Notes: a model not told the origin generated them from the letters alone. 38,943 nt of DNA from Verrucomicrobiota bacterium (GCA_051960355.1 JBQCEJ010000225.1:1-38943); one strand, 5' to 3'; positions 1 to 17,341 are shown, numbered from the stretch's first letter. Program-made: numbers and translations.

Positions 1-1
1 G

Positions 2-1195
2 AACTTCCTTAACCGGAAGAACGAGGCAGACCAGCGGGTCTATGAGTTACTGGCCCAAAAATTCCAGCTTTTCGAAGGTGTCTTTGGCGCGAGCGACGAA
101 GTCCTGGGTGCCATTGAATCCGGCGTGGATTTCGAGAAGCGCATCAATGACATTTACCAGCGGTGTCGCAAGCACGAGGAAATCAAAACCGCCTTCGACA
201 AACTACAACTTGAGTTAAATCTGGAAATCAATTCGGCGATGACGCAAACCCGCCGCAAGCTGCTGGAGAACTTCGACGACGATGTTCGCGACAAGCTGAA
301 AATGCGGGACGAGAAGTCCAGGGCCTCTCTGAACAAGTTTGAGCGGTTGCTGATGCAACTCACACGGCACGAGTTGAGCGGTCACGCTGAGTTCGCAGAT
401 GATTCTGAATTCACACTGAAGTCTTGTCCATTTCCCGGTGAGATTCCGTTAGGCCGCTATGAGTTACCGCGTCGTTCTGGAGAAGCGCATCTCTATCGAC
501 TCGGCCATCCGCTCGCAGAATCAGTTCTCGCGCAGGCAAATAGACGGGAACTTTCTCCGGCGGAAATTCAGTTCGATTATTCCGCACACGATGGAAAGAT
601 CTCACTTCTGAAACCGTTGGCCGGCGAATCGGGATGGTTGACGCTCTCGCTATTCAGTGTTGAATCGCTGCACCAAACGGAAGACCGATTGATTTTTTCA
701 GCGATGACAGATGGCGGGCACGTTTTGGACGAAGAAATATCTCAACGACTGTTTTCCCTGGCTGGCTCGACGGAATCGCGTGTGTTCAATGTTCCGCCAG
801 GCGAACTGGAAACCGTCACACAGCAACGGAAAGCGACCATTCAGCGAGAAATTACCGAGCGGAACGCACAGTTCTTCGAAGCCGAAGCCGACAAACTTGA
901 AGGCTGGGCAGACGATATTAAGCTGGGGCTCGAACGGGAAATCAAAGAGCTTGACCGCCAAATCAAAGAGGCACGGCGGACCGCGACGCTGGCGCTCACT
1001 TTGGAAGAGAAGTTGGCAGGACAGAAACTGATCAAGGCACTGGAGGCGCAACGTGGCAACAAGCGCCGTTCCCTCTTCGATGCACAGGACAAGGTGGATA
1101 AACAACGCGATGAGTTGATTGCCAACATTGAACGAAAGTTAACGCAAAATGCCGCGCTGTTACGGCTTTTCACGGTTCGTTGGAAAGTGGTTTGA
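2..1195 (+). CDS. C-terminal part of a large SF2 (probably SNF2-like) helicase; 5' end lies outside the window
   Basis: Frame 2 is open from nt 2: NFLNRKNEADQRVYELLAQKFQLFEGVFGASDEVLG precedes the listed GTG at 125, so the gene enters the window truncated. It has a long C-terminal coiled-coil (EAEADKLEGWADDIKLGLEREIKELDRQIKEARR...). No helicase motifs fall inside the window. The SNF2 assignment rests on my recollection of this type of tail in defence-associated SNF2 helicases. Confidence 0.5.
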   Translation, partial: NFLNRKNEADQRVYELLAQKFQLFEGVFGASDEVLGAIESGVDFEKRINDIYQRCRKHEEIKTAFDKLQLELNLEINSAMTQTRRKLLENFDDDVRDKLKMRDEKSRASLNKFERLLMQLTRHELSGHAEFADDSEFTLKSCPFPGEIPLGRYELPRRSGEAHLYRLGHPLAESVLAQANRRELSPAEIQFDYSAHDGKISLLKPLAGESGWLTLSLFSVESLHQTEDRLIFSAMTDGGHVLDEEISQRLFSLAGSTESRVFNVPPGELETVTQQRKATIQREITERNAQFFEAEADKLEGWADDIKLGLEREIKELDRQIKEARRTATLALTLEEKLAGQKLIKALEAQRGNKRRSLFDAQDKVDKQRDELIANIERKLTQNAALLRLFTVRWKVV

Positions 1196-1200
1196 ATCCT

Positions 1201-1377
1201 ATGGACACTCCATCTCAAAAACTCGCGTCGAAAATCGTTGAGCGTCTTGTCTCAGAGAAGCTGCTCAACGTTGAAGCTGGGAAGAAGCTCCTGCCAAAGT
1301 TAATGGCTGGAAAACTCAATGCCGAAGATTGGCGATTGCCGATAGAAACCTCCGACAAAAAGGAGGCGAAACCGTGA
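1201..1377 (+). CDS. small hypothetical protein (58 aa)
   Basis: ATG at 1201 lies 5 nt after the helicase stop (TGA 1193-1195). Its stop TGA (1375-1377) overlaps the GTG start of the next gene (GTGA). No recognisable domain. Confidence 0.4.
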   Translation: MDTPSQKLASKIVERLVSEKLLNVEAGKKLLPKLMAGKLNAEDWRLPIETSDKKEAKP

Positions 1378-3704
1378 ACACAGCGCCATTGGCCAAGCTG
1401 ACGATTGCTCACCTTCGCGGCTCCGTGGTTCCATTCAACCTTCCATTTGAAAAGAATAAAAAACTGACTGTGATTTATGGCGAGAATGGTACGGGCAAGT
1501 CCACTATTTGCGATGCATTCGATTTCATTGGAAACGGCAAGGTAGGGTCTTTAGAGAACAGAGGGTTGGGCAGAACTTCCAAATATTGGCAATCCGTCGG
1601 AAAGAAGGCCACTGACTTGTCCGTCACCTTGGAAACCTTGTCTGCCGATCCAAAGAAACCTGATTCATGTCAGGCAATAGTAGGAAAAAGCGATGTCGTC
1701 GTAACTCCCTCGGCATTGCGTCCAAAGGTGGAAGTTTTGAGGCGCAGTCAGATTCTCGGACTGATCGAGGCCAAACCCGGAGATCGCTATGCGGCAATCA
1801 GTCGCTTCATTGACGTTTCGGGTATCGAGGCGTCAGAAGCGGCTCTTCGCGACTTGATTCGTGGTCTAAAAGAAAGCCGTGAAATTGCGATTGCTCGGGT
1901 GCAGGAAAATCTGGAGAGCTTGATCGTTTTTTGGGAAGCGGCTGGGAAACAAGGGAACGATCATCTTGCTTGGGCCGAGGAAGAATCCAAGAGAGCACCA
2001 GAAAATTCTGCTGAAGAGCTTTCAGCCTTGGACGGTTTGCAAACCGCTTTCAATCGTCTGACAGACTATCCAGCACAATTGAAAATCGCCGACCACAACG
2101 TGACCGTTGCGCAGCAGGCAGTGGTTGATGCGAGGAAGAAGTCAGAGGAGTGCGCCAAATCAATTGCTGCGGACGCAGGCGAGACAATGGGCATTCTCGA
2201 AACCGCCAGTGCCTTTTTTCACAAGCACCCCAATCCATCCACATGCCCATTATGTGATAGCTCCGAAAAGGTGGACGGACTGGCGCAGCGGATCAAACAA
2301 CGCCTGGAGCAGTTTTCTACGTTGCAGGCTGCTCTGCAAGATCAGAGGACAGCGGAGACCAGCCTACAGCGCGCCATCCAGCAATCGGATACTTTGAAAG
2401 GAAATGCCAAAAGGCACGCCCAGGATTTTGAAAAAGTGCGGGGAAGATTGACTGAGTGGCCAAAGGACATTGAACTTCCCAAGAGCGCTGCGCCTGAAGA
2501 CGCCGCCAGGTTAGCTGAATGGCTTGAGAAAAATGCCCTTCTTCCGACTCAATGGAAGAAAGTCGAAATAGCAAGGCAGGATCGGAAACAATTCCTAACC
2601 TCACTCAAGTCGGCGCTGAAAACCTTTCAGGATAATGTCAAAGCACAGAAGGAACTCGATGCATTGCTGCCCAAGCTGTCCAAGGCACTTGAGATCGTTG
2701 AAGAAGAGCGCAGAAAACTCACGGATGAAGTCCTTTCCAAAATCGCCGGTGAAGTTGGTCGCATCTACGAAATCGTTCACCCGGGTGAAGGGCTCAACAA
2801 AATTAGCCTGGAATTGGATCCCAAGAAGCGCGCATCCCTGGAAATCGGAACCGACTTCTATGGAGAAAAAGGCGCTCCGCCCCAAGCCTTTTTCAGCGAT
2901 TCGCATCTCGACACTCTGGGTCTTTGCGTTTTTCTCGCCCTGGCGGCGCTGGATGGGCCGGAGAAAACAATTCTGGTCCTCGACGATGTTCTTGCGAGCG
3001 TCGATGAGCCTCACGTCGAACGGTTAATCGAAATGCTCTACGCCGAAGCGGTGAAATTCCGGCATTGCGTCATTTCTACCCATTATCGGCCATGGAAGCA
3101 GAAGCTACGCTGGGGCTGGTTGAAAAACGGTCAATGCCATTTCATAGAACTGACCAGATGGACTGATCAGCGTGGCCTCACTCTTATCCGAAGTGTGCCG
3201 GATGCGGACCGCTTAAAGATTCTGCTCGCGGAGTCGCCGCCTGATCCACAGCTAGTTTGTGCCAAGGCGGGAGTGATTCTGGAAGCCATCCTCGATTTCA
3301 TTACCCAGATTTACGAATGCTCGATCCCGAGACGTCCGGGCGGCCTTTACACACTCGGCGATCTCTTGCCTTCCATCGACAAAAAGCTCCGTAATGCGTT
3401 GACCGTCGAAATCATGGCAAGGGACGAAGTCGGAACAGTCACCTATACATCCGTTAAGCTGGCGCCCATTCTCGACGAATTGATTCGAATTGCGCAAACC
3501 CGAAACGTTTTCGGATGTCACTTCAACACGCTCTCATTTGAACTGCTGGAAACGGATGCAATTGGTTTTGGAAAAAATGTCCTGCATTTGAGCGAAGCAA
3601 TCACTTGCCCTGAAGCGGGCTGGCCGAGAAGTGACAAGTCTGGAAAGTATTGGGCAACGTCCGGAGAAACGCGGCGTCTGCATCCTTTGCAACAACCGAC
3701 CTGA
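1374..3704 (+). CDS. SMC/Rad50-like ABC-type ATPase (AAA_13 / RloC-PrrC-like architecture) with a coiled-coil insertion and a C-terminal effector-like domain
   Basis: AGGAGG at 1361-1366 lies 7 nt before GTG 1374. Walker A GENGTGKST (1479-1505). About 300 aa of coiled-coil with CPLC at 2244-2255. Signature-like FSDSHLDTLGLCVFLALA. Walker B/D-loop ILVLDDVLASVDEPH (from 2970). ISTH H-loop. About 190-aa C-terminal domain containing RNVFGCH (3501-3521). Confidence 0.85.
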   Translation: MNTAPLAKLTIAHLRGSVVPFNLPFEKNKKLTVIYGENGTGKSTICDAFDFIGNGKVGSLENRGLGRTSKYWQSVGKKATDLSVTLETLSADPKKPDSCQAIVGKSDVVVTPSALRPKVEVLRRSQILGLIEAKPGDRYAAISRFIDVSGIEASEAALRDLIRGLKESREIAIARVQENLESLIVFWEAAGKQGNDHLAWAEEESKRAPENSAEELSALDGLQTAFNRLTDYPAQLKIADHNVTVAQQAVVDARKKSEECAKSIAADAGETMGILETASAFFHKHPNPSTCPLCDSSEKVDGLAQRIKQRLEQFSTLQAALQDQRTAETSLQRAIQQSDTLKGNAKRHAQDFEKVRGRLTEWPKDIELPKSAAPEDAARLAEWLEKNALLPTQWKKVEIARQDRKQFLTSLKSALKTFQDNVKAQKELDALLPKLSKALEIVEEERRKLTDEVLSKIAGEVGRIYEIVHPGEGLNKISLELDPKKRASLEIGTDFYGEKGAPPQAFFSDSHLDTLGLCVFLALAALDGPEKTILVLDDVLASVDEPHVERLIEMLYAEAVKFRHCVISTHYRPWKQKLRWGWLKNGQCHFIELTRWTDQRGLTLIRSVPDADRLKILLAESPPDPQLVCAKAGVILEAILDFITQIYECSIPRRPGGLYTLGDLLPSIDKKLRNALTVEIMARDEVGTVTYTSVKLAPILDELIRIAQTRNVFGCHFNTLSFELLETDAIGFGKNVLHLSEAITCPEAGWPRSDKSGKYWATSGETRRLHPLQQPT

Positions 3705-4158
3705 TCCTTTGAGCGAGAAGTTTACCGTCAACTTCAAGACCTCAACCGGGCATCACGTTCGGGTGACATTGGGATATTTTTGGCAGGAACTATCGGACTC
3801 CGACCGCCTCTTTGGATACAAACCCAAGCAGTTTCATGCGGTTCACGTTTATTCGACTGAAGACACCTTCCCGCGGCACTTGCAACTTCGGCATGAATAC
3901 CTGGCCGACAAGGATTACCAGCCCAAAATCGAAGCTGATTTGAAAATCTGGCTCGCCTCGATAATGAACGACAAACGGCATGGCGACTACGATTGTGTTG
4001 AAGACTTCCTGATAGATTTGGCAGACTCTTTCGAGCATCTGGCTGCTGAAACTGGCGATCTCATCCATCATCTGGCAGACCCTAGCATGGAAAACGATCC
4101 ATCGCTGCTTGGGTTTGAAGTGGATGACGAGCCGAAGGAAGAAGAGCCAGAACGTTGA
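3631..4158 (+). CDS. hypothetical protein with an acidic C-terminal tail (start uncertain; alternative TTG at 3709)
   Basis: ORF in the operon frame. GTG 3631 overlaps the ATPase gene by 74 nt. The in-frame TTG 3709 lies 5 nt after the ATPase stop. The C-terminus is EVDDEPKEEEPER. The stop TGA (4156-4158) overlaps TTG 4155 of mod. No domain recognised. Confidence 0.55.
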   Translation: MTSLESIGQRPEKRGVCILCNNRPDPLSEKFTVNFKTSTGHHVRVTLGYFWQELSDSDRLFGYKPKQFHAVHVYSTEDTFPRHLQLRHEYLADKDYQPKIEADLKIWLASIMNDKRHGDYDCVEDFLIDLADSFEHLAAETGDLIHHLADPSMENDPSLLGFEVDDEPKEEEPER

Positions 4159-4163
4159 GTGCG

Positions 4164-5888
4164 ATGATTTCAAAGAAGCAAAAACTTGAACTGACGTGGA
4201 TTGGGAAGGAAAACCGACCACGCCTGGAGCCGCGCATCCTGCTGGAGGACGCGGAGAAATCCTATCACGCCAAACACCGCGTCACCGACAATGATCTGTT
4301 CGATAACCGGCTCATTTTTGGCGACAATCTGCTCGCCCTCAAAGCGCTCGAACAGGAGTTCGCCGGCAAGATCAAGTGCATCTTCATTGACCCGCCTTAC
4401 AACACCGGCAGCGCTTTCAGTCATTACGATGACGGCATTGAACATTCCATTTGGCTTTCGCTAATGCGTGACCGACTCGAATTGCTACGCAAACTGCTTT
4501 CAGAGGACGGGGTGATATGGATTACTATTGACGACAACGAATGCCATTACCTCAAAATCCTTTGCGACGAAGTTTTCGGACGGGAAAATTTTGTCGCAAA
4601 CGTAATTTGGGAGAAGAAATCGTCATCGCAGTCTAACGCACAATGGCTTTCTGATTCCCACGACCATGTTCTAGTCTTTGCGAAAAACAAAGAAATTTGG
4701 CGTCCGGCAAAACTCGCAAGAACGGATGAGCAGAACGCAATTTACAAACACTGTGACGAATACGATGGAATAGACGCTAAAGGAAAAAGATATGGACGCG
4801 GTCCGTGGTTCCCTGGGGATTTCACAATCAGTCTTACAACCGGCCAGCGCGGGAAACAGTTTGCCAAAACAGGCGTCTCCGCAAATTTGTATCCAATCAC
4901 CACTCCCTCCGGGCGCGAGGTGATGCCTGCAAAAGGTAGGTGCTGGGCATACACAAAAGATTCGTTTGAACGTCTAAAGGCCGATAAGAGAGTGTATTTT
5001 GGCAAGGATGGAAGCAGCAAGCCAACGATCAAAAGATTCTTGTCCGAAATTGAAGACCAAGGAGTCGTTTGTCCAACCGTTTGGCACTATTCAGAAGTTG
5101 GCGAAAACCGAATTGCAGCAGTCGAAGTCAAAGCCTTCAACGAAGCGGATCCTTTTTCGGCCCCGAAGCCCGAACTGCTCCTTAAACGAGTTTTGGAACT
5201 TTCTACTAGCCCTCTTGATTGGGTTCTCGACTCCTTCGGCGGTTCAGGCACGACGGGCGCAGTCGCTCACAAAATGGGCCGTCGGTGGATCATGGTTGAG
5301 TTGGGTGAACATTGTCACACGCACATCATTCCCCGGCTCGAGAAAGTGATTGATGGTGCAGACTCCGGCGGGATTACAGAGGCTGTCGCCTGGAAAGGCG
5401 GCGGCGGGTTCCGTTATTACCGGCTCGCACCGTCGCTCCTGGAAAAAGACAAGTGGGGCAATTGGGTCATCAGCAAGGAGTTCAACGCCGCCATGCTCGC
5501 TGAGGCGGCTTGCAAGCTGGAAGGTTTCCAATACGCGCCCAGCGACACAGTGTATTGGCAGCACGGTCACTCCACTGAGCGGGATTTTATTTACGTCACC
5601 ACCGCGCACCTGACCGCTGACCAACTCGCGCAATTGAGCGATGAAGTCGGGCCAGAGCGCACGCTGCTGGTCCTTTGCGCCGCCTTCCGCGCAGGCACCC
5701 AGAACGTCACCGACCGGTTTCCCAACCTGACCGTGAAGAAGATTCCGAAACAGGTCCTCTCCCGCTGCGAATGGGGTCATGACGATTACAGCTTGAAAGT
5801 TGAAAACCTACCCAAAGCGCCGCCTCCGCTCCCGGCGGTGGACAAAAAGGGTCAGCAAACCCTGTTTTCAGAGGAGCCCGGTCGATGA
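4164..5888 (+). CDS. mod: Type III R-M Mod subunit; beta-class N6-adenine (or N4-cytosine) DNA methyltransferase
   Basis: Motif IV IFIDPPYNTG (DPPY at 4389-4400) precedes motif I DSFGGSGTTG (5235-5255), which is the beta-class order typical of Type III Mod. About 270 aa between them could be a target-recognition region. The N-terminal KLELTWIGKENRPRLEPRILLED is typical of this family. The start is ATG 4164, or TTG 4155 overlapping the upstream stop. Confidence 0.9.
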   Translation: MISKKQKLELTWIGKENRPRLEPRILLEDAEKSYHAKHRVTDNDLFDNRLIFGDNLLALKALEQEFAGKIKCIFIDPPYNTGSAFSHYDDGIEHSIWLSLMRDRLELLRKLLSEDGVIWITIDDNECHYLKILCDEVFGRENFVANVIWEKKSSSQSNAQWLSDSHDHVLVFAKNKEIWRPAKLARTDEQNAIYKHCDEYDGIDAKGKRYGRGPWFPGDFTISLTTGQRGKQFAKTGVSANLYPITTPSGREVMPAKGRCWAYTKDSFERLKADKRVYFGKDGSSKPTIKRFLSEIEDQGVVCPTVWHYSEVGENRIAAVEVKAFNEADPFSAPKPELLLKRVLELSTSPLDWVLDSFGGSGTTGAVAHKMGRRWIMVELGEHCHTHIIPRLEKVIDGADSGGITEAVAWKGGGGFRYYRLAPSLLEKDKWGNWVISKEFNAAMLAEAACKLEGFQYAPSDTVYWQHGHSTERDFIYVTTAHLTADQLAQLSDEVGPERTLLVLCAAFRAGTQNVTDRFPNLTVKKIPKQVLSRCEWGHDDYSLKVENLPKAPPPLPAVDKKGQQTLFSEEPGR

Positions 5889-5927
5889 AACCCTGCCTTG
5901 TCAAAGCCCCCGAGCGGAGTTAGCGTC

Positions 5928-6719
5928 ATGCCTAGTGAAGAGCCAGACAAGACAGTTTCAACCAGTCAAACCGCTTCTCACCCAGAAGCAGCTTGCGCAG
6001 ATCTTGTCCAATCGGCGCTCCATTTCCTCCGCCGAAGCTCATCGCCAGATGGCCGCCCACTTGGGCCGTCCTCTGTCGCCAGGCAGAAAGCTGACCTTCG
6101 TCAATGGGCGCAAGGTCTGGGCTTGCTGCTGACGCCGGACTGGCTTCCCACTATTCCGCTTCGAGGCGGACAGGAACACGATCTCTATCACGACACGCTG
6201 TCGGACCGCTATTTCAAGGTCACCCGCGAGGGCGTTTTCGGCTTCTCCCCCGGTATTGAACTCGCGCTGGTTTCCTCTGGCGAAGACGCCCGGCGTTTTC
6301 ATCTCTGGGAAGCCACCCCCGTGGAGTATTTGGAACGCCTCGCCCTGCACAACCAACTTGTCCCGGAAATTAACCGGCTGGAAGGCGTCTTGGATCAACC
6401 CGATGGCGACATGGCCGTCGTCACCTCCCAGCCGCGGTTCGATATTGTACCGGTTACGGAGTCGGAAATTGACGCGTGGTTTGCCGGACTGGGCTTCACC
6501 CGAATTACGCGCTCCGCCTATTACCGTGCCGACGACAACTTGGGAGTGTTTGACGCCCACGACAAAAACGTCGTTCGTGCCGGGACTTCGTTGATCCCAT
6601 TTGATATCATTCCCTGCCGCCCGGCCGAAGGGTTCCTGAAGTTCATCGAAGACACCCTGGCCGCAGGGCATACCCTCACGGCGCAGCGCACTGCCACCAC
6701 TTCATCTCGTTCAAAATGA
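5928..6719 (+). CDS. protein-kinase-fold protein (polyvalent-protein-type kinase-like) inserted between mod and res
   Basis: Motifs occur in kinase-like order and spacing: RGGQEHDLY (Gly-rich, from 6162), YFKVT Lys (6216-6218), FDAHDKN giving D-x4-N (6549-6569), and PFD 12 residues after the Asn (6597-6605). The stop overlaps the res start (ATGA 6716-6719). The start is ATG 5928 or TTG 5898. Confidence 0.6.
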   Translation: MPSEEPDKTVSTSQTASHPEAACADLVQSALHFLRRSSSPDGRPLGPSSVARQKADLRQWAQGLGLLLTPDWLPTIPLRGGQEHDLYHDTLSDRYFKVTREGVFGFSPGIELALVSSGEDARRFHLWEATPVEYLERLALHNQLVPEINRLEGVLDQPDGDMAVVTSQPRFDIVPVTESEIDAWFAGLGFTRITRSAYYRADDNLGVFDAHDKNVVRAGTSLIPFDIIPCRPAEGFLKFIEDTLAAGHTLTAQRTATTSSRSK

Positions 6720-9406
6720 AACCCCAGGTAAATGCCATCTCCGGTCGTCTGAGTCTGCGCCCGCCGCAACGTCGTTCGCTCGAAATCCTCGACCGGCTCA
6801 CGGAAATCGTCCCACCAAACAAGGGTTATGATCTGCCCGCCGCGCTGGAGATCATCAAGGGCGAGTTCCCGACGGTAAGCGATTTCGAGCGCGAGTTTCC
6901 CTCCCTTTGCTTTGCGCTGGCGACCGGCGTTGGCAAGACACGGCTCATGGGTGCTTTCATCAGCTACCTGCACCTCGCGCACGGCATCAACAATTTCTTC
7001 GTCATGGCTCCGAACCTGACGATTTACAACAAGCTGATTAACGACTTCACGCCGAACACGTCCAAATACGTGTTCAAAGGCATCGCCGAATTCGCCACCG
7101 ATTCACCGGAGATCATCACCGGCGACAACTATGAAGCCAAGGCAGGCACGCTGTTCGACCAGGTGCTTCGGTGCAAGATCAACATCTTCAACATCTCCAA
7201 GATCAATTCCGAGGTTCGCGGCGGCAAATCCCCGCGCATCAAACGTCTCTCGGAATACATTGGCGAAAGCTATTTTGAATATCTCGCCGCGTTGCCCGAC
7301 CTCGTGCTCATCATGGATGAGTCCCATCGCTATCGCGCCAGCGCTGGCGTGCGGGCGATCAACGAGTTGAAGCCGGTCATCGGCTTGGAATTGACGGCAA
7401 CGCCGATGGTCGAAACCTCCAAAGGCGCGGTGCCGTTCAAGAACGTCATTCTCGATTATCCGCTCGGCAAGGCGATGGCCGACGGATTCGTGAAAGAGCC
7501 AGCCGTCGTCACGCGCAAGAATTTCAATCCCGCCGGAATGACGCCGGAGGCCATCGAGCAGATGAAGCTCGAAGACGGTATTCGCTTGCACGAAAGCGTG
7601 AAGGTCGAACTGGAGACCTACGCTCGGGAGAGCGGCAACGCCATTGTGAAACCGTTCGTCCTCGTGATCGCCCGCGATACCACGCACGCCGGGCAGTTGA
7701 TGAAGCTGATTCAGTCCGAGGATTTCTTCAAAGGCGCATACAAGTCCAAGGTCATCCAGGTGGACTCCAGCAGGACCGGCGCGGAGGAAGACGAAATGGT
7801 CGAGCGTTTGTTGAAGGTAGAGCACAACGATGAGCCGACCGAAATCGTCATTCACGTGAACATGCTCAAAGAAGGGTGGGACGTGACGAATCTTTACACC
7901 ATTGTCCCGCTACGCGCCGCCAACGCGCGCATCCTGATCGAGCAGTCCATCGGGCGCGGCTTGCGTTTGCCGTACGGCAAGCGCACCGGGGTCAATGCAG
8001 TGGACCGCCTGAACATCATTGCGCACGACAAGTTTCAGGAAATCGTGGATGAAGCGAAAAAGCCCGATTCGGCCATTCGTCTGCAACAGGTCATTCTTGA
8101 GCCTGACAAACTGACCGAGAAAACCGTCACCGTCGTTTCACAGCCGCAACTGGCGAGCAAGCTCGGCTTTCAACCCGAGCAGACCACAGCGAGCACCCTT
8201 GTTCCCCAATCCGCCGAGTCGCCGGTGTTTACCACGCCGGAAGATCAGAAGGTTGCTCAAATCACCTACGAGGTGATCCGCAAGCTGGAAAATCAGCCGC
8301 AGAAGTTGCCGAGCGTCTCATACCTGTCCAAACCGGAAGTGCAGGCAGCGGTGTTGAAGGAAGTCCAGACGCAGTATCGGCCATCCCAACTGGAGATCGA
8401 AGGCGTGGCCAAGCAGCCAGATTTCGCGGCCATCGTAGCCAGAACCACGGAAGTCGTGATTCAGCAGACGATTGATATTCCGCGCATCCTGGTCGTGCCG
8501 ACCGGCAAAGTGCAATCCGGCTTCAATCCGTTCACCTTGAATCTCTCGACAATCAAATATCCGGTCGTTTCAGAAGAGCTTTGGGCCAAGCATCTGCGAA
8601 CGGATCAGGTGGACGTGATTGCCATGGGTAAAGGCGGCATCGAGGAAGCGCGTCTCGAAGACTACGTTGTAAGCGGCTTGGTGGATTTTGACGATGTTTC
8701 CTACGACGCCCATGCCGACCTGCTTTATGACCTCGCAGCCCAGGTCGTGAAGCATCTCCGCAGCTACCTTCCTGACGAGCACGAGATCAGCAAAGTGCTG
8801 CGCTGTTACCAGCGCGACATCGCCCGCTTCGTCCACGCGCAGATGCAGGAACACTATTGGGAGAAGGCTACCGGCTACGAAGTGAAAATCAGCAAAGGCT
8901 ATTCAGAATTAAAGCCCAGCGCATACACCGCCTCGGCCGCCGAGCCGGTGCTCGATTATCGCCAACCGCCTTCCGACAAGAGCAACATGGCCAAGTATTT
9001 GTTCGGTGGCTTCAAACGGTGCCTCTACCCGGTGCAGAAGTTCCAATCCGACAGCGAACGCAAACTGTCCGTGATTTTGGAGCGTGAAGCCGCAAAGTGG
9101 TTCAAGCCAGCAAAGGGGCAATTCCAGATCTTCTACAAATCGGGCGCTGACCATCTCGAATACCAACCCGATTTCGTCGCCGAAACCGACGGGGTGATTT
9201 ACATGCTTGAGCCCAAGGCAAAGAACGAAATGGCCGACGCCGAGGTTGTCGCCAAAAAGGAAGTGGCGGTGAAATGGTGCGGGCAAGCCAGTGATCATGC
9301 CGCTACGCATACCGGCAAGAAATGGCATTATCTTCTGATCCCCCACGACGCCATCGCCGAAAACATGACGCTGGAAGGTTTGGCGAAGCAATACAAAGTG
9401 AACTGA
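6716..9406 (+). CDS. res: Type III restriction enzyme Res subunit (SF2 helicase plus C-terminal PD-(D/E)xK nuclease)
   Basis: Motif I ALATGVGKTR (6923-6940). Motif II LIMDESHR. Motif III LELTATP. HVNMLKEGWDVTNLY. Motif VI QSIGRGLRLP. C-terminal YQPDFVAETDGVIYMLEPKAKNE, i.e. PD...EPK (9167-9217). Confidence 0.9.
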   Translation: MKPQVNAISGRLSLRPPQRRSLEILDRLTEIVPPNKGYDLPAALEIIKGEFPTVSDFEREFPSLCFALATGVGKTRLMGAFISYLHLAHGINNFFVMAPNLTIYNKLINDFTPNTSKYVFKGIAEFATDSPEIITGDNYEAKAGTLFDQVLRCKINIFNISKINSEVRGGKSPRIKRLSEYIGESYFEYLAALPDLVLIMDESHRYRASAGVRAINELKPVIGLELTATPMVETSKGAVPFKNVILDYPLGKAMADGFVKEPAVVTRKNFNPAGMTPEAIEQMKLEDGIRLHESVKVELETYARESGNAIVKPFVLVIARDTTHAGQLMKLIQSEDFFKGAYKSKVIQVDSSRTGAEEDEMVERLLKVEHNDEPTEIVIHVNMLKEGWDVTNLYTIVPLRAANARILIEQSIGRGLRLPYGKRTGVNAVDRLNIIAHDKFQEIVDEAKKPDSAIRLQQVILEPDKLTEKTVTVVSQPQLASKLGFQPEQTTASTLVPQSAESPVFTTPEDQKVAQITYEVIRKLENQPQKLPSVSYLSKPEVQAAVLKEVQTQYRPSQLEIEGVAKQPDFAAIVARTTEVVIQQTIDIPRILVVPTGKVQSGFNPFTLNLSTIKYPVVSEELWAKHLRTDQVDVIAMGKGGIEEARLEDYVVSGLVDFDDVSYDAHADLLYDLAAQVVKHLRSYLPDEHEISKVLRCYQRDIARFVHAQMQEHYWEKATGYEVKISKGYSELKPSAYTASAAEPVLDYRQPPSDKSNMAKYLFGGFKRCLYPVQKFQSDSERKLSVILEREAAKWFKPAKGQFQIFYKSGADHLEYQPDFVAETDGVIYMLEPKAKNEMADAEVVAKKEVAVKWCGQASDHAATHTGKKWHYLLIPHDAIAENMTLEGLAKQYKVN

Positions 9407-9475
9407 CATTGAAATCCACGGCTTACCTGGTCGAAACCGTGGGACAGTCAGGGAAAAGGCATGGGAACTTGAAAG

Positions 9476-9550
<75 letters not shown>

Positions 9551-9566
9551 AACCGGTAGAGCGGAG

Positions 9567-9595
9567 AAGATTGTCGCCCGCAGGACGTTTGTCAA
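9567..9595 (-). promoter_or_regulatory. candidate sigma70-type promoter for the tRNA-Lys gene
   Basis: On the minus strand: TTGACA (9590-9595), a 17-nt spacer, then AATCTT (9567-9572). The -10 element ends 16 nt upstream of the mature tRNA 5' end. The -35 is perfect and the -10 is weak. Confidence 0.35.
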
Positions 9596-9723
9596 TCTTC
9601 GGATAGACCAATGACCGTTTTTTCTTGAAGCAAAATCTTCGCTCCGAATTCCCGCTTGCAAGCATTCAAGCTTGATTGCATGCGTCACTCAGATCGAAGT
9701 TCCAGCTTCCGCCGATCCTCCCT

Positions 9724-11961
9724 TTATTTTTCCGTAGTCAGGGTGCCGCTGAGTTGAACCGATTTACCCGCTTTGAGTTTGAGATCAGCAGTGAGATCGC
9801 CATAGCGCACTTTGCCGCCCGTGCCGGTCACGCTGCGAATCACGGCGTTCTTCAACTTGCCGCCAGCCCAGGTCAGGTCCACTTCGAAACCGCCGCGGGC
9901 GCGCAGCCCTTTCACGGAACCGGATGGCCAGACTAATGGGATTGCGGGCAGAAGATTGATTTCGCCTTCGTGACTTTGCACGAGCATTTCCGCCATGCCA
10001 GCTGTGACTCCAAAGTTGCCGTCCGCCTGCATTGGCGGGTGCAGCCCGAACAAATTCGGACAGGTGTTCCGGGCAGAGAAGAGCTGCTGCAACATGCGAT
10101 GCGCATTGTCGCCGTCGTGCAACCGCGCATACAAAGCCGTGCGCCATGCAAAGGACCATTCGCGCACGTCGCTCGCAGCATCAATTCCCCGAGCGTCGAG
10201 CGAAACTCGGGCGGCTTTCGCCAATTCCGGCGTCTTCACGATGCTAATCTGATTACCAGGGTAAACCGCGAAGAGATGCGACGTGTGGCGATGATGATCG
10301 TTGGGCGTGTCGAGTTCCGGATTTTTCGAAACAGCGTTGGTTCCGGTCTTCTCGGTCATCCATTCGAGCAATTGTCCCCAGCTTCCAATTTTTGGCGTGA
10401 CCAGCTTATCGCGCATGGTGGCGATTTTATCGCGATAAGCCCGATCCACACCCAGCGCATCGCTGGCCTGAATGTAGTTGTTGAACAAATCCCAAACAAT
10501 TTCCTGGCTGTAACTCACGCCATCTTCCTCGGGACCGTGTTCTGGCGACCACGCATTCGGAACGATCAGACCGCCGTCGGGCATGGTTTTCAGATGATCC
10601 TCCCAGAATTCGCAAGTTTCCTTGAGAATCGGATACGCAACCGTCCGGAGATACTTCTTGTCACCGCTGAATGCGTAATGTTCCCACAGATGCTGGCAGT
10701 ACCAGGCATTCGCGGTCTTGTCCCACTTCCATCCCATGCCGCCCATGACGTTGTGCGATGTGCGGATGGCAAACCCGCGGGAGGTCATCGCGCCTGAAGT
10801 TGTTTTGAAATCCGGCGACGCGGCGGTGGCCTTGCGCCAGGCGGGAAGCTGGCTGGCGATCAGGTCAAAGAACGGCACGTGACACTCGGCCATGTTCGCG
10901 ACTTCGGCAGGCCAGTAATTCATCTGCACGTTGATGTTCGCATGGTAATCGGAATGCCAAGGCGGATCGTTGCGATCGTTCCACAGGCCCTGCAAGTTCG
11001 CTGGCAAGCCGCCGGGACGCGAACACGAGATCAACAGATAACGGCCATATTGAAACAGCAGTTCCTCCAGCTCAGGATCCACGGTGTGGACCGCGGCGAG
11101 TTTGCGTTTGTCTGTCGGTTGCGAATTTTGTTCCGGCGACGATTTTCCAAGGTCGAGCGCGACGCGGTTGAAGAGTGATTGAAAATCTCTGACGTGTTCC
11201 GCCTTGAGCGTGGCAAAGCTTTTCCGCGAAGCCGCCGTCAATGCCGCGCTCAGGCGTTTGTGCGGCGGCTCACCGCGATAATGCTTCACGTAGTCCATCG
11301 CGTAGTCCGTGCCTGCAACGATCAGGAAGGTGAGGCGATTGCAGTTCTTGAACTCCAACGTCGTCCCGCTGGCCCGGAGCGAACCGCCCTCATGCAACGC
11401 GAGTAGTTGCCACTCAAATTTCAAACCATTGTCCAGCGCGCCGGAAACGATCAGCCGATTGCCTTCCGCTGCGACGCGGGCATTGTGCGAATCGGCCAAT
11501 TCGATCGTTCCCGTATAGCTGCCGGGCTTATCCGCAGTGAATTCCGCCGCGAGCACGTCCGCGGGATGACTGCACAAATATTCGCGCTGAAAGGTCACAC
11601 CGTGCGATTGATAAACGACCTTGGCCACGGCGTTGCTGAGATCCAGTTCACGGCGATAGTTGGAGTTGGTTTCATGGCCGGGCAAATTGATGAAGATGTT
11701 TCCAAACGTCTGATAGGAGCCCATTTTTTGATAGTCGCCCGAGAGGTTTTCGTCGCCGGTCCAGAGGCTGTTCTCATTGATGTTGATTCGTTCACGCTCA
11801 GGCACGCCGAAGATCAAACCACCGAGACGTCCGTTGCCGATCGGCAGCGCTTCGTTCATGGGATTTTTGGCCGGCTGCTCAAACCAGAGGGTCAAGTCCG
11901 CAGCGAAGCTGGTTTGGATCAACTGCCAAATAACGACGGCGCCTATAAATAACTTTTTCAT
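9724..11961 (-). CDS. glycoside hydrolase family 95 (alpha-L-fucosidase-like), secreted
   Basis: N-terminal signature [48 protein letters not shown], following the signal peptide [21 protein letters not shown] prefer the ATG at 11961 to the ORF-track start 12030, which overlaps the crp gene. Confidence 0.85.
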
Positions 11962-12019
11962 GATCTGCTTGCTGTGCGTCGGTTTGGACGGAACAGCGGG
12001 CGGCTCATTCACGCCCGGG

Positions 12020-12739
12020 TTACTCGCCAAGGTTGCGGCGCAGCAGCGCGTTCAAGCGGGCCGGCGAGAGGATCGTCACGGTCTTGTCTTTGACGGTCAG
12101 AAGCTTTTGCTGCCGGAACTTGGCCAATGTGCGGGAAAACGTTTCGCTGACCGTGCCGAGTTCGGCCGCCAGCACGCGCTTGGTCATGGTCAATTCGATG
12201 CGCGCCGGCTGTTCGCTGGCGGGATTGGGACAGCGCTTGATCAGCCAGTTGGCCAGCCGGGTTTCCACATCCTTCAAGGTCAGGTCTTCGAGTTGGCCGA
12301 CGAGCACGCGCAGATGACTGCTCATCGAGCCGAGCATGCGCAGCGCGAGTTCCGGCTGGCGTTGCAGCAGGGCGAGAATGCCGGCCTTTTGAACGAGCAG
12401 AACCTGCGAGGCCTCAAGTGCACGCGCATCGGCGGGATAACCCTTTTCGGAAGCCAGCGCCACTTCGGCAAAAGAATCGCCGGTGCGGAAGACGTGGATG
12501 ATCTGTTCCTTGCCCGCGGCGCTGACGCGATGAACGTTCACCGCGCCGCGCTGCACAATGTAAAAACCCACAGCGGGATCGCCTTCGTGAAACAAATAAT
12601 CCCCTTTATCAAGCGCCTTCACCACGGTCACGGCGGCGATATTTTCCAGATCCTGCAGCGGCAGTCCGGTGAACAACTGACAACTTCGGAGCGTGTTGAC
12701 GATGGCAATGGTTTTGAATTCGTTCAGAGCGGCGGACAT
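12020..12739 (-). CDS. Crp/Fnr-family transcriptional regulator (DNR/NnrR-like; no FNR-type Cys cluster)
   Basis: cNMP-binding fold ([23 protein letters not shown]...GDSFAEVAL) and a C-terminal HTH ([23 protein letters not shown]). It has a single N-terminal Cys. It lies in the nirK operon. Confidence 0.85.
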
Positions 12740-12748
12740 GCGAACGAT

Positions 12749-12997
12749 TCAAGCAGTTTCCCGCCAAAAGTAAACCAGCCAGTCCGCCCCTGCCCCACGC
12801 TCAACCTTGGATGCAAAACCTTCACTGCTCAATTTCTCAATCAACGGCGAGGGCAGAAAGGGTGCGATGACCAGCAAGCCTTTGCCCGCAGGCAGCGCGT
12901 CCACGCGCTTGCGAATTTCAGGAAAGGGCTCGGTGCCGCCGCGAATCATCTCGCGCACGTCGAACCGCTTGAAAGCAGTGATCGGAGGAGTGCTCAT
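12749..12997 (-). CDS. DUF2249 domain protein
   Basis: An 82-aa ORF with a DUF2249-like pattern (FDVREMIRGGTEPFPEIRKRVDALPAGKGLLVIAPFLPSPLIEKL). Its start overlaps the sco stop (ATGA at 12994-12997). Confidence 0.65.
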   Translation of the reverse strand: MSTPPITAFKRFDVREMIRGGTEPFPEIRKRVDALPAGKGLLVIAPFLPSPLIEKLSSEGFASKVERGAGADWLVYFWRETA

Positions 12998-13620
12998 TGG
13001 CTGTTCATGGTTTTAAGTTTTTCGATAACACCGTCCGTCGGGAGATTCAAGCCCGGCTGTTGAAACACGATTTCACCCTCGGCATTCAATACCGTGATGA
13101 GATTGGAATGCGCGAATTGCCCGCTCGCATCCTTCCGATAATTCACGCCGAGCAAAGCCGCCAGTTCACGCACATTGTCCGGCTCACCCCGCAACAGCGT
13201 CCAGTCGGCCTTTGGCAGATCGCGTTCAATCCGCATCGCGTGCAGAGCCTCTGGCGTGTCGCGCTCGCTGTCAAACGAGATCAGCGTGAAACCCACGTTC
13301 GTGCGCAACGCTTCCGGCAAGGCGCTGGCAATGCGCTTGAGGTCGTTCACCAGGATGGGACACGTGTACTGGCAACTGGAGAAAAACATGATCACGACCT
13401 GCGGCTTGCCGCGCAAGGCGCCGAGCCGGATCGGCTTCGCTTCGTCTGTCGTCCAGATCGAATCAATTTGATAAAGCGACTTGTCGGTGAACGTCGCCGG
13501 CGCGAGTGTTTTGGAGCAGCACGCAGGCAAATCAGGACTGCTGTTCCTTTCCGGGGCTGGTGCGGCGCCTGCAATCGACCAAGCCAAAGCGGCGGCCAGC
13601 AGAATTGTTGGAGTCTTCAT
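12994..13620 (-). CDS. SCO1/SenC-family copper chaperone (thioredoxin fold)
   Basis: CxxxCP motif (SCQYTCP) plus a downstream His (FAHSN). Signal peptide MKTPTILLAAALAWSIAGA. The ATG at 13620 overlaps the nirV stop (ATGA). Confidence 0.8.
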   Translation of the reverse strand: MKTPTILLAAALAWSIAGAAPAPERNSSPDLPACCSKTLAPATFTDKSLYQIDSIWTTDEAKPIRLGALRGKPQVVIMFFSSCQYTCPILVNDLKRIASALPEALRTNVGFTLISFDSERDTPEALHAMRIERDLPKADWTLLRGEPDNVRELAALLGVNYRKDASGQFAHSNLITVLNAEGEIVFQQPGLNLPTDGVIEKLKTMNSQ

Positions 13621-14411
13621 AAATCTTTGGCGCAACGGAAGCCCAAGTTGTGAACGGAATAATCTGCCTTGAGGCTGCTGCGAAATCCGTAGCGCATGAA
13701 CGCGGGAAAATTTTCGACGTCTTTCGCTCCAACCGATCCAGCGCCGCAGAAGCGTTCTCGGTCAAGCCCGCTGTCGTTGCGCGCGTCGCCAGTGACGGTG
13801 GCGGTGTTAAAGTCGGAAACCCATTCCCAGACCAGCCCATGCAGATCATGCACGCCCCAGAGATTCGCACTGTCCAGACCGACGTCGTTCAATTTCGCGG
13901 GAGTTGGTGTGGCATACCATTGGAACACCTGCCGCTTGAAGGCGGCATCGTTCTCGCCGTCCGCGCGCGTTGGGCTGGCAGCGGCGGCGTATTCCCACTC
14001 GGCCACCGTTGGCAGACGTTTGCCCTTCCATTGCGCGTACGCTTTGGCGGCAAACCAGGACACGCGAGTCACGGGAGCGTTTGGCGGCGCATTGGTGCCG
14101 AGGTCCAGGTCACCGGCCCAATGTTTTAGATACGATTCGTCAGCGAAAATCCGTTTCACCTGTGACCGTTGCCAACGCGGATTGGCGCGGACGAATTCCA
14201 GGAACTCGCTGTTCCTGACCGGCAGCACGTCGAGATAAAAACCTTTGACCGGCACTTCCTTGAGATCCGTCAGCGACCGAAACAATGGCCGATAAACGCC
14301 GTCAGGAATTCGCGCCATGCCTGCCGGAGGCAATTCTGCGCCCCACGCGCTGCTCATGACTGCGCTGGCGAGCAGTGCGGCAAGGCAAATGGATCGGCGG
14401 ATTCCTGACAT
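13617..14411 (-). CDS. nirV: formylglycine-generating-enzyme (SUMF1) family protein, NirV-like
   Basis: FGE-sulfatase domain signatures (VTRVSWFAAKAYAQWKGKRLPTVAEWEYAA; LWGVHDLHGLVWEWVSD; NLGFRCAKDL). It lies immediately downstream of nirK, as nirV does in other denitrifiers. I prefer the start at ATG 14411 (MSGIRRSICLAALL...). Confidence 0.8.
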   Translation of the reverse strand: MSGIRRSICLAALLASAVMSSAWGAELPPAGMARIPDGVYRPLFRSLTDLKEVPVKGFYLDVLPVRNSEFLEFVRANPRWQRSQVKRIFADESYLKHWAGDLDLGTNAPPNAPVTRVSWFAAKAYAQWKGKRLPTVAEWEYAAAASPTRADGENDAAFKRQVFQWYATPTPAKLNDVGLDSANLWGVHDLHGLVWEWVSDFNTATVTGDARNDSGLDRERFCGAGSVGAKDVENFPAFMRYGFRSSLKADYSVHNLGFRCAKDL

Positions 14412-14433
14412 GGCTTGTTTCTTTCGTTTCGGG

Positions 14434-15972
14434 TTATTCGAAACTGCTCTTGGCTGGGGGTGGCGGCGTTTCCTGACGGATCCGGGCGACTTCCTGAACA
14501 GTGACCGCATCACCGCTGTTGCCCCAACTGTTGCGCACATAGGTCAGCACGTTGGCGATTTGTTCGTCCGTCAGATAAGCCAGCGAGATCATTGTGCCAT
14601 TGTAGGTCTTGCCATTAACGGTGATCTCGCCTGTGCGTCCGGCGATCACGCCTCGAATGATGTCATCCTTGTCCTTGGCTGAAAGAAAATCGGATTTGGC
14701 CAGCGGCGGAATCTGGTTCGGAACACCCTGTCCTTCGAGTTGATGGCAGACGAAGCAGGTTTGCGCATAAACCGATTTGCCTTTCTGGATTTGGATTTCC
14801 TTGGTCAACCCGGCGATCTTGGGATTGCTTTTGATTTCGTGGGCAACCTCGGCCTTGAGGGCGGCAACGCGCTTTTCCGTCTCGCCGCCTTCCACGGCCT
14901 TGCCGAGATAAACCGCGTCCACTTCCTTGCCGGAATAGACGATTTGATTTTGTGGACCGTCCACTTTCAACATGCCGAGCGCGCCTTTGTTGAACGCGCG
15001 GAACAGCGCGTGGTCCACCAACACGTAGGTTCCCGGAATTTCCACCTCGAATTCCAGCATCACCGCGCCGCCAGCCGGAATGGTCGTCGTCTGCACATTG
15101 TGCTGGCTGGGCGTGGTGCCGCCTTCCTGATAAACGGTGTCGAAGATTTCGCCGATGACGTGGAAGGACGACGTGAGATTGGGACCGCCGTTGCCGACAT
15201 ACAAACGGATTTTCTCACCCACTTTGGCCGTGAGCGCCTTGTCGCCCACCAATGATCCGACGGAACCGTTGAACACCACGTAGGTCGGTCGCTCGTCCGT
15301 GGCTTTGTTCATATCGAAACCCTGCAAGCCTTCCTCGCCATAACCACCGATCGTATAAAACTCGCCTTGCATCACGTAATATTCATGGTCCACGGGCGGC
15401 AAACCTTCCTTCGGCTCGACGAGAATCATTCCATACATGCCGTTGCCGACGTGCATGCCGACCGGTGCGGTGGCGCAATGATAGATGAAGATTCCGGGAT
15501 TAAGAGCCTTGAACGTAAACTGCGAGCTGTGACCGGGCGCCGTGAATGATGATGCCGCGCCGCCACCGGGCCCGGTGACCGCGTGGAGATCGATGTTATG
15601 CGGCATCTTGTTGTCTTGATGATTGTTCAAATGGAACTCCACCTCGTCGCCCTCGCGAATGCGAATGAAGCTTCCCGGGACATTCCCGCCGAACGTCCAG
15701 AAAACATAATCGACGCCATCAGCCAGTCGCTTGGTAACTTCAATCACTTCCAGGTTCACGACCACTTTGGTCGCATGCTTGCGCGTGATCGGCGGCGGCA
15801 CCTGTGGCGCTTGCGTGAGCACGGCATTTTCAACACCTTGGATTTCCGGATCGGTGAGTTTGCCGGCTGGGGCCTTCACTTCCGATTCCGATGAGTGCGC
15901 GATGCTCATGGTCAAGCACAGGCCAGCAGTGGCGACGCAGAGTTTTTTCCTGAGAGCGGGGCTAATTTTCAT
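14434..15972 (-). CDS. nirK: copper-containing nitrite reductase NirK with a C-terminal cytochrome c domain
   Basis: Cu-ligand motifs [15 protein letters not shown] and [20 protein letters not shown]-terminal extension of about 150 aa with the heme c motif CFVCH (14743-14757). Signal peptide present. Confidence 0.9.
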
Positions 15973-16137
15973 AGTTCACTTTGTTTTTGGAAATCTAGTT
16001 TGGGATTGCGGGTTTAAGCCATCAACAGTCAAGGGCGCGAACGCCACCACCGGGGAGATCGCGGCGAGCACCAGTCTGTTTCGGCTCTCTGAGATCTGAG
16101 ACATGAGTGAAATTTAGCATTGTCGAAAGCTGCCGCA

Positions 16138-16151
16138 TTGACTTTCGTCAA
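16138..16151. promoter_or_regulatory. candidate Crp/Fnr (FNR/DNR-type) binding box
   Basis: Perfect palindrome TTGAC-TTTC-GTCAA in the divergent intergenic region. It lies about 166 nt from the nirK start and about 138 nt from the start of the NarI-like gene. The FNR/DNR consensus is TTGAT-N4-ATCAA. Confidence 0.5.
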
Positions 16152-16288
16152 AGACAGGAAGCTTCAGACTCGGCATCTTGAGACGCAGATGGAATGAAAA
16201 TCTGAAACAACGCCGTGGAAATTCAGTGCTAGATTTTTGACTCCAGCAGCATTACTTGTTTCAACTCAGAAAGCCGAAAACATCAATC

Positions 16289-17335
16289 ATGTTTAACACC
16301 CTGAATTTCCGCGCTGCTCTGGTCGCCGGCGCCGCCACACTCCTGCTGGTGATCATGATTCTCGTGGGTTCGCGCAACCTGGGAAATTTCGATCCCGCCC
16401 TGATCGCTTACCTCTTTGGCTGCATCTTCGCCTGTTTCGGCGTGGTTTACCGCTACAGCGTCTGGCTGCAACGCGCACCGACCTGGCGTTACTTTGTGCG
16501 CGGCTGGCAATTGTTCTTCACCGGCCGAACGATTGCCTACGGCTGGGAGTTGACCAAACATTTCGTGATTCAGTTTCTCGGCCAGAAATTCATTCGCAAT
16601 CGCGGCAAGACGCGCGGTTACGGGCACATGCTCATGGCCTGGGGCTGCATGCTCGCCTTTGCGATTACCTTCCCGCTCGTGTTCGGCTGGATTCACTTTG
16701 GGCTCAAGCCGGGCGGCATTGACACCTACGAGATTTTCACCTTCGGCTTCAAAGTGATGGAATTTCCGCTGCACACCTGGCTGGCTGAAATCATTTTCAA
16801 CGGCCTGAACTGGTCGGCCATTCTGGTGATTGCCGGCGTGATGATCATGATGCGCCGCCGTCTGACGCATGCGGGCCAAATCGCGATTCAGACGTTCGAA
16901 GGCGATTGGCTGCCGCTCTTGCTCCTGCTGGCGATCTCGTTGACCGGGCTGGGCATCAGCCTCGATTACAAATTCATGGAGGGCAAAGCGCATCAGTTCA
17001 TGGCCATCACCCACGCGATCACCGTGATTTTATTCCTGCTCTGGATGCCGTTCGGCAAGTTCTACCACATCATTCAACGCCCGGCCCAACTCGGCGTTTC
17101 CATCTATCGCAAAGCCGGCGCGGAAGGTCCGCAAGCCGTTTGTCCGCATACGAAACAACCGTTCACTTCGCAGATGCACGTGAACGATCTCAAAGACGTG
17201 ACGGCGCAACTCGGCTTTGATTTCAAGCGCAAGGACGGTTCAACGCATTTGGATTACAGCCCGCAGGGAAAGCGCGCTCTGCTGGCCAAGGCGCATCTCC
17301 AGGCGCGGCAGAAATCCGGTTCACTCTTTGGATAA
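16289..17335 (+). CDS. NarI/DsrM-like integral membrane b-type cytochrome with a cytoplasmic C-terminal tail
   Basis: Multiple TM helices with conserved His residues (GYGHMLMAWG, RRRLTHAG, AITHAI). NarI-family motif LWMPFGKFYHIIQRP. First gene of the operon. I prefer ATG 16289. Confidence 0.65.
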   Translation: MFNTLNFRAALVAGAATLLLVIMILVGSRNLGNFDPALIAYLFGCIFACFGVVYRYSVWLQRAPTWRYFVRGWQLFFTGRTIAYGWELTKHFVIQFLGQKFIRNRGKTRGYGHMLMAWGCMLAFAITFPLVFGWIHFGLKPGGIDTYEIFTFGFKVMEFPLHTWLAEIIFNGLNWSAILVIAGVMIMMRRRLTHAGQIAIQTFEGDWLPLLLLLAISLTGLGISLDYKFMEGKAHQFMAITHAITVILFLLWMPFGKFYHIIQRPAQLGVSIYRKAGAEGPQAVCPHTKQPFTSQMHVNDLKDVTAQLGFDFKRKDGSTHLDYSPQGKRALLAKAHLQARQKSGSLFG

Positions 17336-17341
17336 TTCACC

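Follow-up and report, generated by a model that had tools for sequence, protein, structure and literature searches.

A Kinase-PolyVal-family gene between mod and res of a Type III restriction-modification operon in a Verrucomicrobiota bacterium

The window analysed here is a stretch of 38,943 nucleotides (nt) from a Verrucomicrobiota bacterium (GCA_051960355.1 JBQCEJ010000225.1:1-38943), in which a protein-kinase-like gene lies between the mod and res genes of a restriction-modification (RM) operon. Mod is an N6/N4 methyltransferase and Res a superfamily 2 (SF2) helicase-nuclease, and the presence of both in one operon identifies the system as Type III. An initial annotation, made from the sequence alone, had placed a kinase gene between these two; PADLOC and Pfam matches of the flanking genes and an above-threshold match of the product to Pfam family Kinase-PolyVal (PF18762) bear this out. 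The features of the junction are as follows:

4155-5888, + strand: Type III mod (methyltransferase); PADLOC MTase_III PDLC03636, 716.8 bits; Pfam N6_N4_Mtase, 160 bits; start approximate
5898-5926, + strand: promoter-like element, TTGTCA (5898-5903), 17 nt, TAGCGT (5921-5926), ending 1 nt before the ATG
5928-6719, + strand: Kinase-PolyVal-family gene, 263 amino acids (aa) plus stop; a minimal kinase without the C-terminal subdomain
6716-6719, + strand: ATGA overlap of the kinase stop and the res start, read from the sequence
6716-9406, + strand: Type III res (helicase-nuclease), 896 aa; PADLOC REase_III PDLC03648, 713.9 bits; Pfam ResIII

The widest open reading frame (ORF) of the kinase gene runs from 5898 to 6719 (+) and holds 273 codons opening with TTG, but the true start is almost certainly the ATG at 5928; the alignment of 14 members points to this, as M1 is invariant and the family lengths fit (~256-324 aa, mostly ~260-265 aa, among the matches listed). 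A product of 263-273 aa had been suggested, and it is the lower figure that stands. The TTG at 5898 was rejected as a start codon, the equivalent TTG at -30 preceding in-frame stops in two other family loci (L007 and L012; loci are designated by L numbers). A candidate Shine-Dalgarno sequence, GGAG at 5916-5919, was discarded for want of conservation across other loci. A 198-aa database gene call for the kinase (P0001) was also rejected, residues 21-65 being conserved at the protein level. Residue numbers below are those of the 263-aa protein; the ORF-track numbers of the initial annotation are higher by 10.

The spacer between mod and the kinase gene is 39 nt, and the ATGA overlap onto res, correctly described at the outset, is also found in loci L042 and L089; in Type I loci the kinase stop likewise overlaps hsdS, YhcG or another gene. 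Relatives of Res align from residue 1-5 wherever the 5' end lies on the contig.

The element upstream of the kinase looks like a private promoter, for which the support is comparative. The layout TTGnnn, a 16-18 nt spacer and TAnnnT, ending 0-4 nt before the ATG, occurs in 59 of 76 family loci, but at 1 of 642 starts of other ORFs and at 22 of 20,000 positions drawn at random; a more distant clade of the family also has a promoter-like pair upstream. A promoter consensus scan of the window did not flag the element, and TAGCGT matches TATAAT at 3 of 6 positions. It stands so near the ATG that a canonical transcription start would not fall ahead of that codon, yet translation must begin at ATG 5928 because residues 21-65 are conserved; one possibility is that a very short or absent leader explains this proximity. 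No conserved RNA structure was predicted around the start (0 pairs), and the nucleotides directly after the ATG (AGTGAA or GAT) are conserved at the DNA level. The kinase is a self-contained unit of promoter-like element and ORF.

Family membership, active site and predicted structure

PF18762 matches the window protein with 39.7-39.9 bits (gathering score 27; E 6e-10) over profile positions 55-149 of 160, and all 14 aligned family members match it (best E 7.9e-14), so that the family first named is the right one. A search of 1.84 billion representative proteins with a profile of the family found 1,042 relatives, among them stand-alone proteins of ~230-290 aa and giants of 1,700-6,000 aa that carry a match to the whole domain near their C-terminus; the kinase domains of these giant polyvalent proteins are reached at E 1e-30 to 1e-19. 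Pfam also calls Kinase-PolyVal in four of five giant relatives tested, and in these five no methyltransferase or helicase domain is fused to the kinase domain, a GNAT domain being present in one. One metagenome source already labels a member with the Kinase-PolyVal name.

What defines Kinase-PolyVal is that the C-terminal kinase subdomain has been lost entirely, and the authors of this definition judged the retained core to be closer to protein kinases (Iyer, Burroughs, Anand, de Souza and Aravind 2017, PMC5512222). The hallmarks given there are a Glu before strand 2, a Gln in the last N-lobe strand, and an insertion that separates the phosphotransfer motif's conserved His and Asp; the polyvalent proteins of phages and conjugative elements that carry the domain are predicted to modify host proteins on entry (PMC5512222). 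The motifs of the window protein are listed below, with conservation counted over 62 diverse relatives that include the kinase domains of the 1,700-6,000-aa polyvalent proteins:

6162-6182, + strand: R79-G-G-Q-E-H-D85, Gly-rich loop and then, ahead of strand 2, the Glu-His specific to the family
6216-6218, + strand: K97, predicted ATP-binding lysine in strand 3 (YFKVTR), 61/62; predicted strand 94-99
6429-6431, + strand: Q168, Gln in the last N-lobe strand (162-169), 60/62
6552-6569, + strand: D209-A-H-D-K-N214, catalytic-loop equivalent of the form D-x4-N; D209 61/62, N214 61/62
6597-6605, + strand: P224-F-D226, equivalent of DFG with the metal-binding Asp; D226 62/62

The first motif continues to Y87 (R79-G-G-Q-E-H-D-L-Y87), and within it E83 is conserved in 62/62, H84 in 61/62 and G81 in 51/62; G105 and Y134 are each present in 62/62. 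G80 lies 17 residues before K97, and D226 lies 12 residues after N214. The motif order and spacing originally noted hold in full, and the residues named with them prove to be invariant or nearly so across the family. E83 directly precedes strand 84-89 and Q168 falls in strand 162-169, as the family hallmarks require. The conserved pair Y199-R200, followed by 8 residues and then D209, may be the His-Asp insert, its register being uncertain; D212 was considered as the catalytic Asp and rejected, this position being variable among relatives. Conservation of this kind indicates that the kinase-like motifs are not due to chance. The product is probably an active minimal phosphotransferase of the Kinase-PolyVal family, enzymatic activity being inferred from the intact catalytic residues.

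The AlphaFold2 model (mean predicted local distance difference test score 74, core 85-93) contains the strands of the N-lobe, a helix spanning 131-144 and a catalytic region rich in strands. After the DFG-equivalent it has one helix (236-245) and one strand, and the protein ends 37 residues past D226; the single helix fits the C-lobe loss that defines the family (PMC5512222). A bilobal kinase fold had been proposed as a structural check; against solved structures the matches are non-significant. The classic bilobal fold is not expected here, because the family is defined by C-lobe loss. In BFVD, a collection of predicted viral structures, the best Foldseek match is a phage large polyvalent protein (E 2.2e-12, template modelling (TM) score 0.62, 253 columns); a 'PolyVal Ser/Thr/Tyr kinase' follows at E 5.1e-8, and after it comes a long tail of weak matches to viral Ser/Thr kinases. 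Searched by sequence profile, PDB gave no match. Comparison by hhalign with six Hanks kinases from neighbouring genes aligned the catalytic loop only and was non-significant (E 0.23); in this non-significant register D209, N214 and D226 stand opposite the HxD...N...D of the Hanks kinases.

The catalytic loop also bears on the nature of the substrate. Its form in the window protein, D-x-H-x-x-N, is that of APH/choline-kinase-type enzymes, the weak PDB matches include APH(2'')-IVa (ranks 2-3) and FN3K (rank 29), and the substrate-binding C-lobe of protein kinases is missing; the product might on these grounds be a small-molecule or nucleotide kinase, similar to aminoglycoside or fructosamine kinases, whose target could be a nucleotide, a signal molecule or a DNA end. 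All of the PDB matches are non-significant, however, the BFVD tail consists mainly of viral Ser/Thr kinases, and the retained core was placed nearer protein kinases by those who defined the family (PMC5512222); a small-molecule kinase is therefore considered very improbable.

The mod-res junction and the contexts of the kinase family

In metagenomes 584 relatives of Res were found, and 80 loci of close relatives (L093-L172; 66-86% identity) were examined. Mod lies upstream of res in 68 of the 80; the two genes are contiguous or overlapping in 27 of these 68, and 265-3,145 nt separate them in the other 41. An insertion between mod and res, at first regarded as unusual, is thus not so in this RM family, 41/68 relatives having one. 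The cargo found in the junction is as follows:

14 loci: YhcG/DUF1016 PD-(D/E)xK nuclease
9 loci: RhuM
5 loci: Fic/Doc
4 loci: PDDEXK_3
3 loci: AAA_21 ABC ATPase with a partner gene
2 loci: Abi_2
Fewer loci: DUF3368 and others, some unassigned

Most cargo genes extend 3 nt past the res start, coupled by ATGA just as the kinase is; at the other end, YhcG cargo begins 6-9 nt after mod in 8 of its 14 loci. The DUF1016 hidden Markov model is contaminated by an alternative-frame ORF that overlaps the kinase, and its matches within the kinase ORF were disregarded. A survey of how often the family takes this position had been suggested: none of the 68 Res relatives with mod upstream holds the kinase in the junction, and among 87 dereplicated loci of the kinase family the order mod-kinase-res was found in three. 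The kinase is a rare cargo in a common slot. Toxin-type genes inside RM operons are an established theme of multi-level defence (Anantharaman et al. 2013, PMC3710099), to which the Type III junction is a counterpart; the position of the kinase is held by alternative effector genes in related systems, both in the Type III slot and in Type I operons. A literature search found no Kinase-PolyVal gene, or similar kinase, described as cargo of a Type I or Type III RM operon.

The tight family comprises 473 matches; the 120 of them that were listed share 61-73% identity with the window protein (its own gene call aside), while loci fetched from genomes for the survey have 46-74% identity; all but two of the named family genomes are Verrucomicrobiota. 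RM genes stand beside the kinase (K) in 27-28 of the 87 loci (~31%), in four arrangements and with two RM types:

Mod-K-Res: the window, L042, L089
HsdM-K-HsdS: for example L002, L008, L029
HsdM-K-YhcG: L009, L020/L086, L067
HsdR-K-HsdM-HsdS: for example L006, L016, L039

The kinase reads in the same direction as the RM genes, mostly directly beside the methyltransferase gene, and the next same-strand gene of the RM locus overlaps it or starts 3-4 nt away. RM genes make up 31 of 128 kinase-adjacent ORFs as against 2 of 246 ORFs more than 5 kilobases (kb) away, a difference of ~30-fold (Fisher p = 7e-14, the loci being non-independent). Other copies adjoin CRISPR-Cas (L092) or DpnI/HNH/IS200 genes (L083). 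In L002 a gene for a protein tyrosine phosphatase (PTP)/dual-specificity phosphatase lies on the opposite strand at 18549-19091, just past the kinase-bearing Type I RM island; this may be coincidence, and no such gene was seen in the window. L001 has three tandem ~680-aa paralogues without a Pfam match at 3651-9938, directly upstream of a solitary kinase.

Packing of this kind could be that of a dedicated RM regulator, which would phosphorylate Res/HsdR or Mod/HsdM and so delay, license or alleviate restriction, for instance during establishment in a new host; a switch acting on Res or Mod was among the roles initially suggested. The kinase is always co-directional and tightly packed with the RM genes: in several loci its stop runs into the start of res, of hsdS or of whichever gene comes next, elsewhere it lies 3-4 nt before hsdM, and the usual neighbour is the methyltransferase gene; its own promoter-like element would give a transcript of kinase and res apart from mod. 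Pgl/BREX type 2 (phage growth limitation/bacteriophage exclusion) also offers a precedent for a kinase working with a methyltransferase. Against this, one and the same kinase, highly conserved at 50-74% identity whichever its partner, is found with both Type I and Type III systems, the subunits of which are of different families, most copies (~2/3) are solitary and under equal purifying selection, the other cargo of the slot is toxin-type rather than regulatory, and 27 of 68 close Res relatives have no cargo at all. A switch dedicated to Res or Mod is consequently not favoured, and a regulatory role is regarded as rather unlikely.

Proposed function and setting in the island

It is proposed, with confidence that is evenly balanced, that the kinase is a self-contained, protein-modifying accessory effector linked to RM and analogous to Fic/Doc, RhuM and PrrC; the slot, the company of neighbouring genes and the intact active site point to this reading. 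As an occupant of the variable mod-res cargo slot of a widespread Type III RM family, translationally coupled to res, the kinase would supply a second layer of defence by phosphorylating a conserved cellular target, or possibly a phage target, once restriction alone fails. The protein nature of the substrate, the role in defence and the trigger are predictions. Since the same kinase is found with unrelated RM types, also survives without them and is under like constraint whether linked or solitary, a conserved cellular component is a more likely substrate than Res or Mod.

Several observations weigh against the effector proposal. About two-thirds of the family loci have no RM gene nearby, and solitary copies lie amid housekeeping genes with locally conserved synteny (SecA-K-RluA, DapB-K, PyrG/K/VWA, LpxI). 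A distant stand-alone clade sits in sugar-utilisation operons, its genes (255-259 aa; 6001-6780 in L174 and 3179-3946 in L173) being co-directional between sialidase (BNR) and sugar-transport genes, with no RM genes nearby in either locus. For an effector of the toxin type, the lack of a conserved partner or immunity gene is awkward. The D-x-H-x-x-N loop with the weak APH(2'') and FN3K matches leaves room for a small-molecule substrate, and the three best matches among solved structures, although kinases (PknS, APH(2'')-IVa), are non-significant (E 0.08-0.24, TM ~0.23). No model in a PADLOC and NCBIfam scan matches the kinase, and thus no defence model does; a literature search found no experiment on, and no tested function for, any Kinase-PolyVal member.

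The solitary copies bear equally on whether any functional link to restriction exists. In a neighbour-joining tree the RM-linked copies intermingle with the solitary ones, so that a division into an RM-linked clade and a housekeeping clade was rejected; the ratio of non-synonymous to synonymous substitution (dN/dS) is ~0.2-0.26 in both settings alike, and the gene is under purifying selection, with synonymous sites near saturation among family copies. Decay of RM genes beside an intact kinase is seen in L005, which keeps a ~25-aa N-terminal remnant of Res (5934-6010), in L009, L016 and L080, where hsdM is split or truncated, and in L092, where a 128-aa DEAD-box fragment (9581-9967) lies upstream of the kinase that adjoins CRISPR-Cas. 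Between differing contexts, DNA similarity is confined to the kinase ORF, the short upstream element excepted. These features would suit an autonomous gene with its own promoter, either serving a cellular function of its own or selfish, that lands at permissive sites such as operon junctions, for which RM operons would be frequent sites without a functional tie to restriction: its homology stops at the ORF borders, a private promoter-like element accompanies it in 59/76 loci, co-directional copies are wedged into housekeeping and sugar operons as well as RM operons, and it outlasts decayed or split RM genes. Transposon or cassette flanks were nevertheless rejected, inter-locus homology stopping inside the ORF, and the surroundings of the family loci showed neither a transposase nor terminal repeats nor conserved flanks. 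The near-saturated synonymous divergence further argues that the copies are not recent hops, the ~30-fold excess of RM genes next to the kinase also weighs against this reading, and the viral-contig, phage and plasmid collections searched hold no copy; an autonomous gene of this kind is considered unlikely.

The same absence bears on whether the gene is a counter-defence function left by a mobile element and directed against restriction, a role suggested by relatives that are domains of phage and conjugative-element polyvalent proteins, themselves predicted modifiers of host proteins. The tight family is chromosomal and lies inside intact RM operons, and it has 0 matches in 2.9 million viral contigs, 50,697 phage records and 72,556 plasmid records; a counter-defence origin is the least probable of the readings considered. 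Each of these four alternatives is held to be less likely than the accessory effector.

A more specific form of the effector proposal is a portable guardian, in which promoter and ORF would plug into Type I or Type III RM operons beside the methyltransferase gene; the kinase would sense failure or inhibition of restriction and phosphorylate a target conserved in Verrucomicrobiota, stopping the infected cell, and solitary copies would be those that outlived their RM partners. PrrC and PARIS (phage anti-restriction-induced system) act as RM guardians (PMC12707154), and extending such a role to the kinase is speculative and seems doubtful.

The remaining genes of the island lie upstream of mod:

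2-1195: SNF2/DrmD-like helicase gene, C-terminal 398 codons, cut by the left window edge
1329-3704, + strand: ABC/SMC-like ATPase, 791 aa; Pfam AAA_13 and AAA_21; PADLOC LmuB-like, 83.8 bits
3631-4158, + strand: small ORF of at most 175 aa, flanked by the ATPase gene and mod; start uncertain; no family match

As the helicase gene runs off the left edge, the defence island extends beyond the window; ordinary metabolic genes follow from 9724 onward. The C-terminus of the ATPase has an RNVFGCH (Rx5H) motif, which makes it a candidate RloC/PrrC-like ABC-HEPN protein belonging to the island, and ATPase homologues lie upstream of mod in at least nine related Type III loci. A three-layer layout acting on DNA, RNA and protein has been proposed for loci with PrrC/RloC and Doc/RhuM (PMC3710099); an ATPase with Rx5H together with the kinase would fit this layout. 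The 175-aa ORF overlaps both neighbouring ORFs and has a homologue in L093. No BREX/Pgl model in PADLOC matched any of the six island proteins. The GC content is 49-53% from the ATPase gene to mod, on the left side of the island, ~59% in the kinase gene and 54-60% in the flanking chromosome, in a comparison of window positions 1-5000 with 5001-20000; the contrast fits separate origins of the kinase and the rest of the island.

The family itself, present in Pfam, and RM-embedded toxins are already known; what is most likely new is Kinase-PolyVal as an RM add-on to a known defence layout. The stand-alone, RM-embedded form of 263 aa is a far easier entry point than the giant polyvalent proteins. 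If the kinase is an effector, phosphorylation by a C-lobe-less kinase would join nucleases, Fic/Doc, RhuM and HEPN RNases among RM-linked second-layer weapons; if the guardian proposal is true, it would be the first kinase-based RM guardian and the first function assigned to Kinase-PolyVal. Cargo slots have long been noted in Type I loci; this widespread Type III family has a comparable one at its mod-res junction, which would be convenient for finding further defence accessories.

Comparison with known systems

Phosphorylation of many cellular proteins as a weapon between phage and host is known from T7 gp0.7 and Staphylococcus Stk2; the former is a phage take-over factor and the latter a stand-alone abortive-infection kinase, and neither is RM cargo. 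T7 gp0.7 has been cited in connection with the Kinase-PolyVal family (PMC5512222).

PglW of Pgl/BREX type 2 is similarly a protein kinase whose gene adjoins that of a DNA methyltransferase, in a defence system based on methylation. It is a large multi-domain Hanks-type kinase working with PglX, PglY and PglZ; in the window these partners are absent and no BREX model was matched.

The kinase resembles PrrC in the EcoprrI Type IC locus, RloC and PARIS as a gene set within an RM operon with the potential to act once restriction is blocked, and the window resembles RloC/PrrC further in the Rx5H motif of the ABC ATPase upstream of mod. PrrC differs in being an ABC-HEPN tRNA nuclease whose latency has been demonstrated and whose trigger is known.

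The Kinase-PolyVal proteins described by Iyer et al. (PMC5512222) share with the window protein the above-threshold PF18762 match, the loss of the C-lobe, E83, Q168 and the intact K/D/N/D residues, as well as a lineage bias to Verrucomicrobia. The window protein differs in standing alone at 263 aa rather than within a giant polyvalent protein, and in being chromosomal, RM-embedded and not found in the phage and plasmid collections searched; the 2017 study lists stand-alone forms from Bacteroidetes alone (PMC5512222).

The toxins embedded in RM operons differ from the kinase, which is of another fold and family, has a private promoter-like element and a 39-nt spacer, and in ~2/3 of its copies lies outside RM operons. 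Doc is a kinase of EF-Tu, and the kinase described here, like Fic/Doc, is predicted to be a protein-modifying enzyme. It shares with Fic/Doc, RhuM, Abi2/AbiD and YhcG (PMC3710099) the same mod-res slot, overlapping res.

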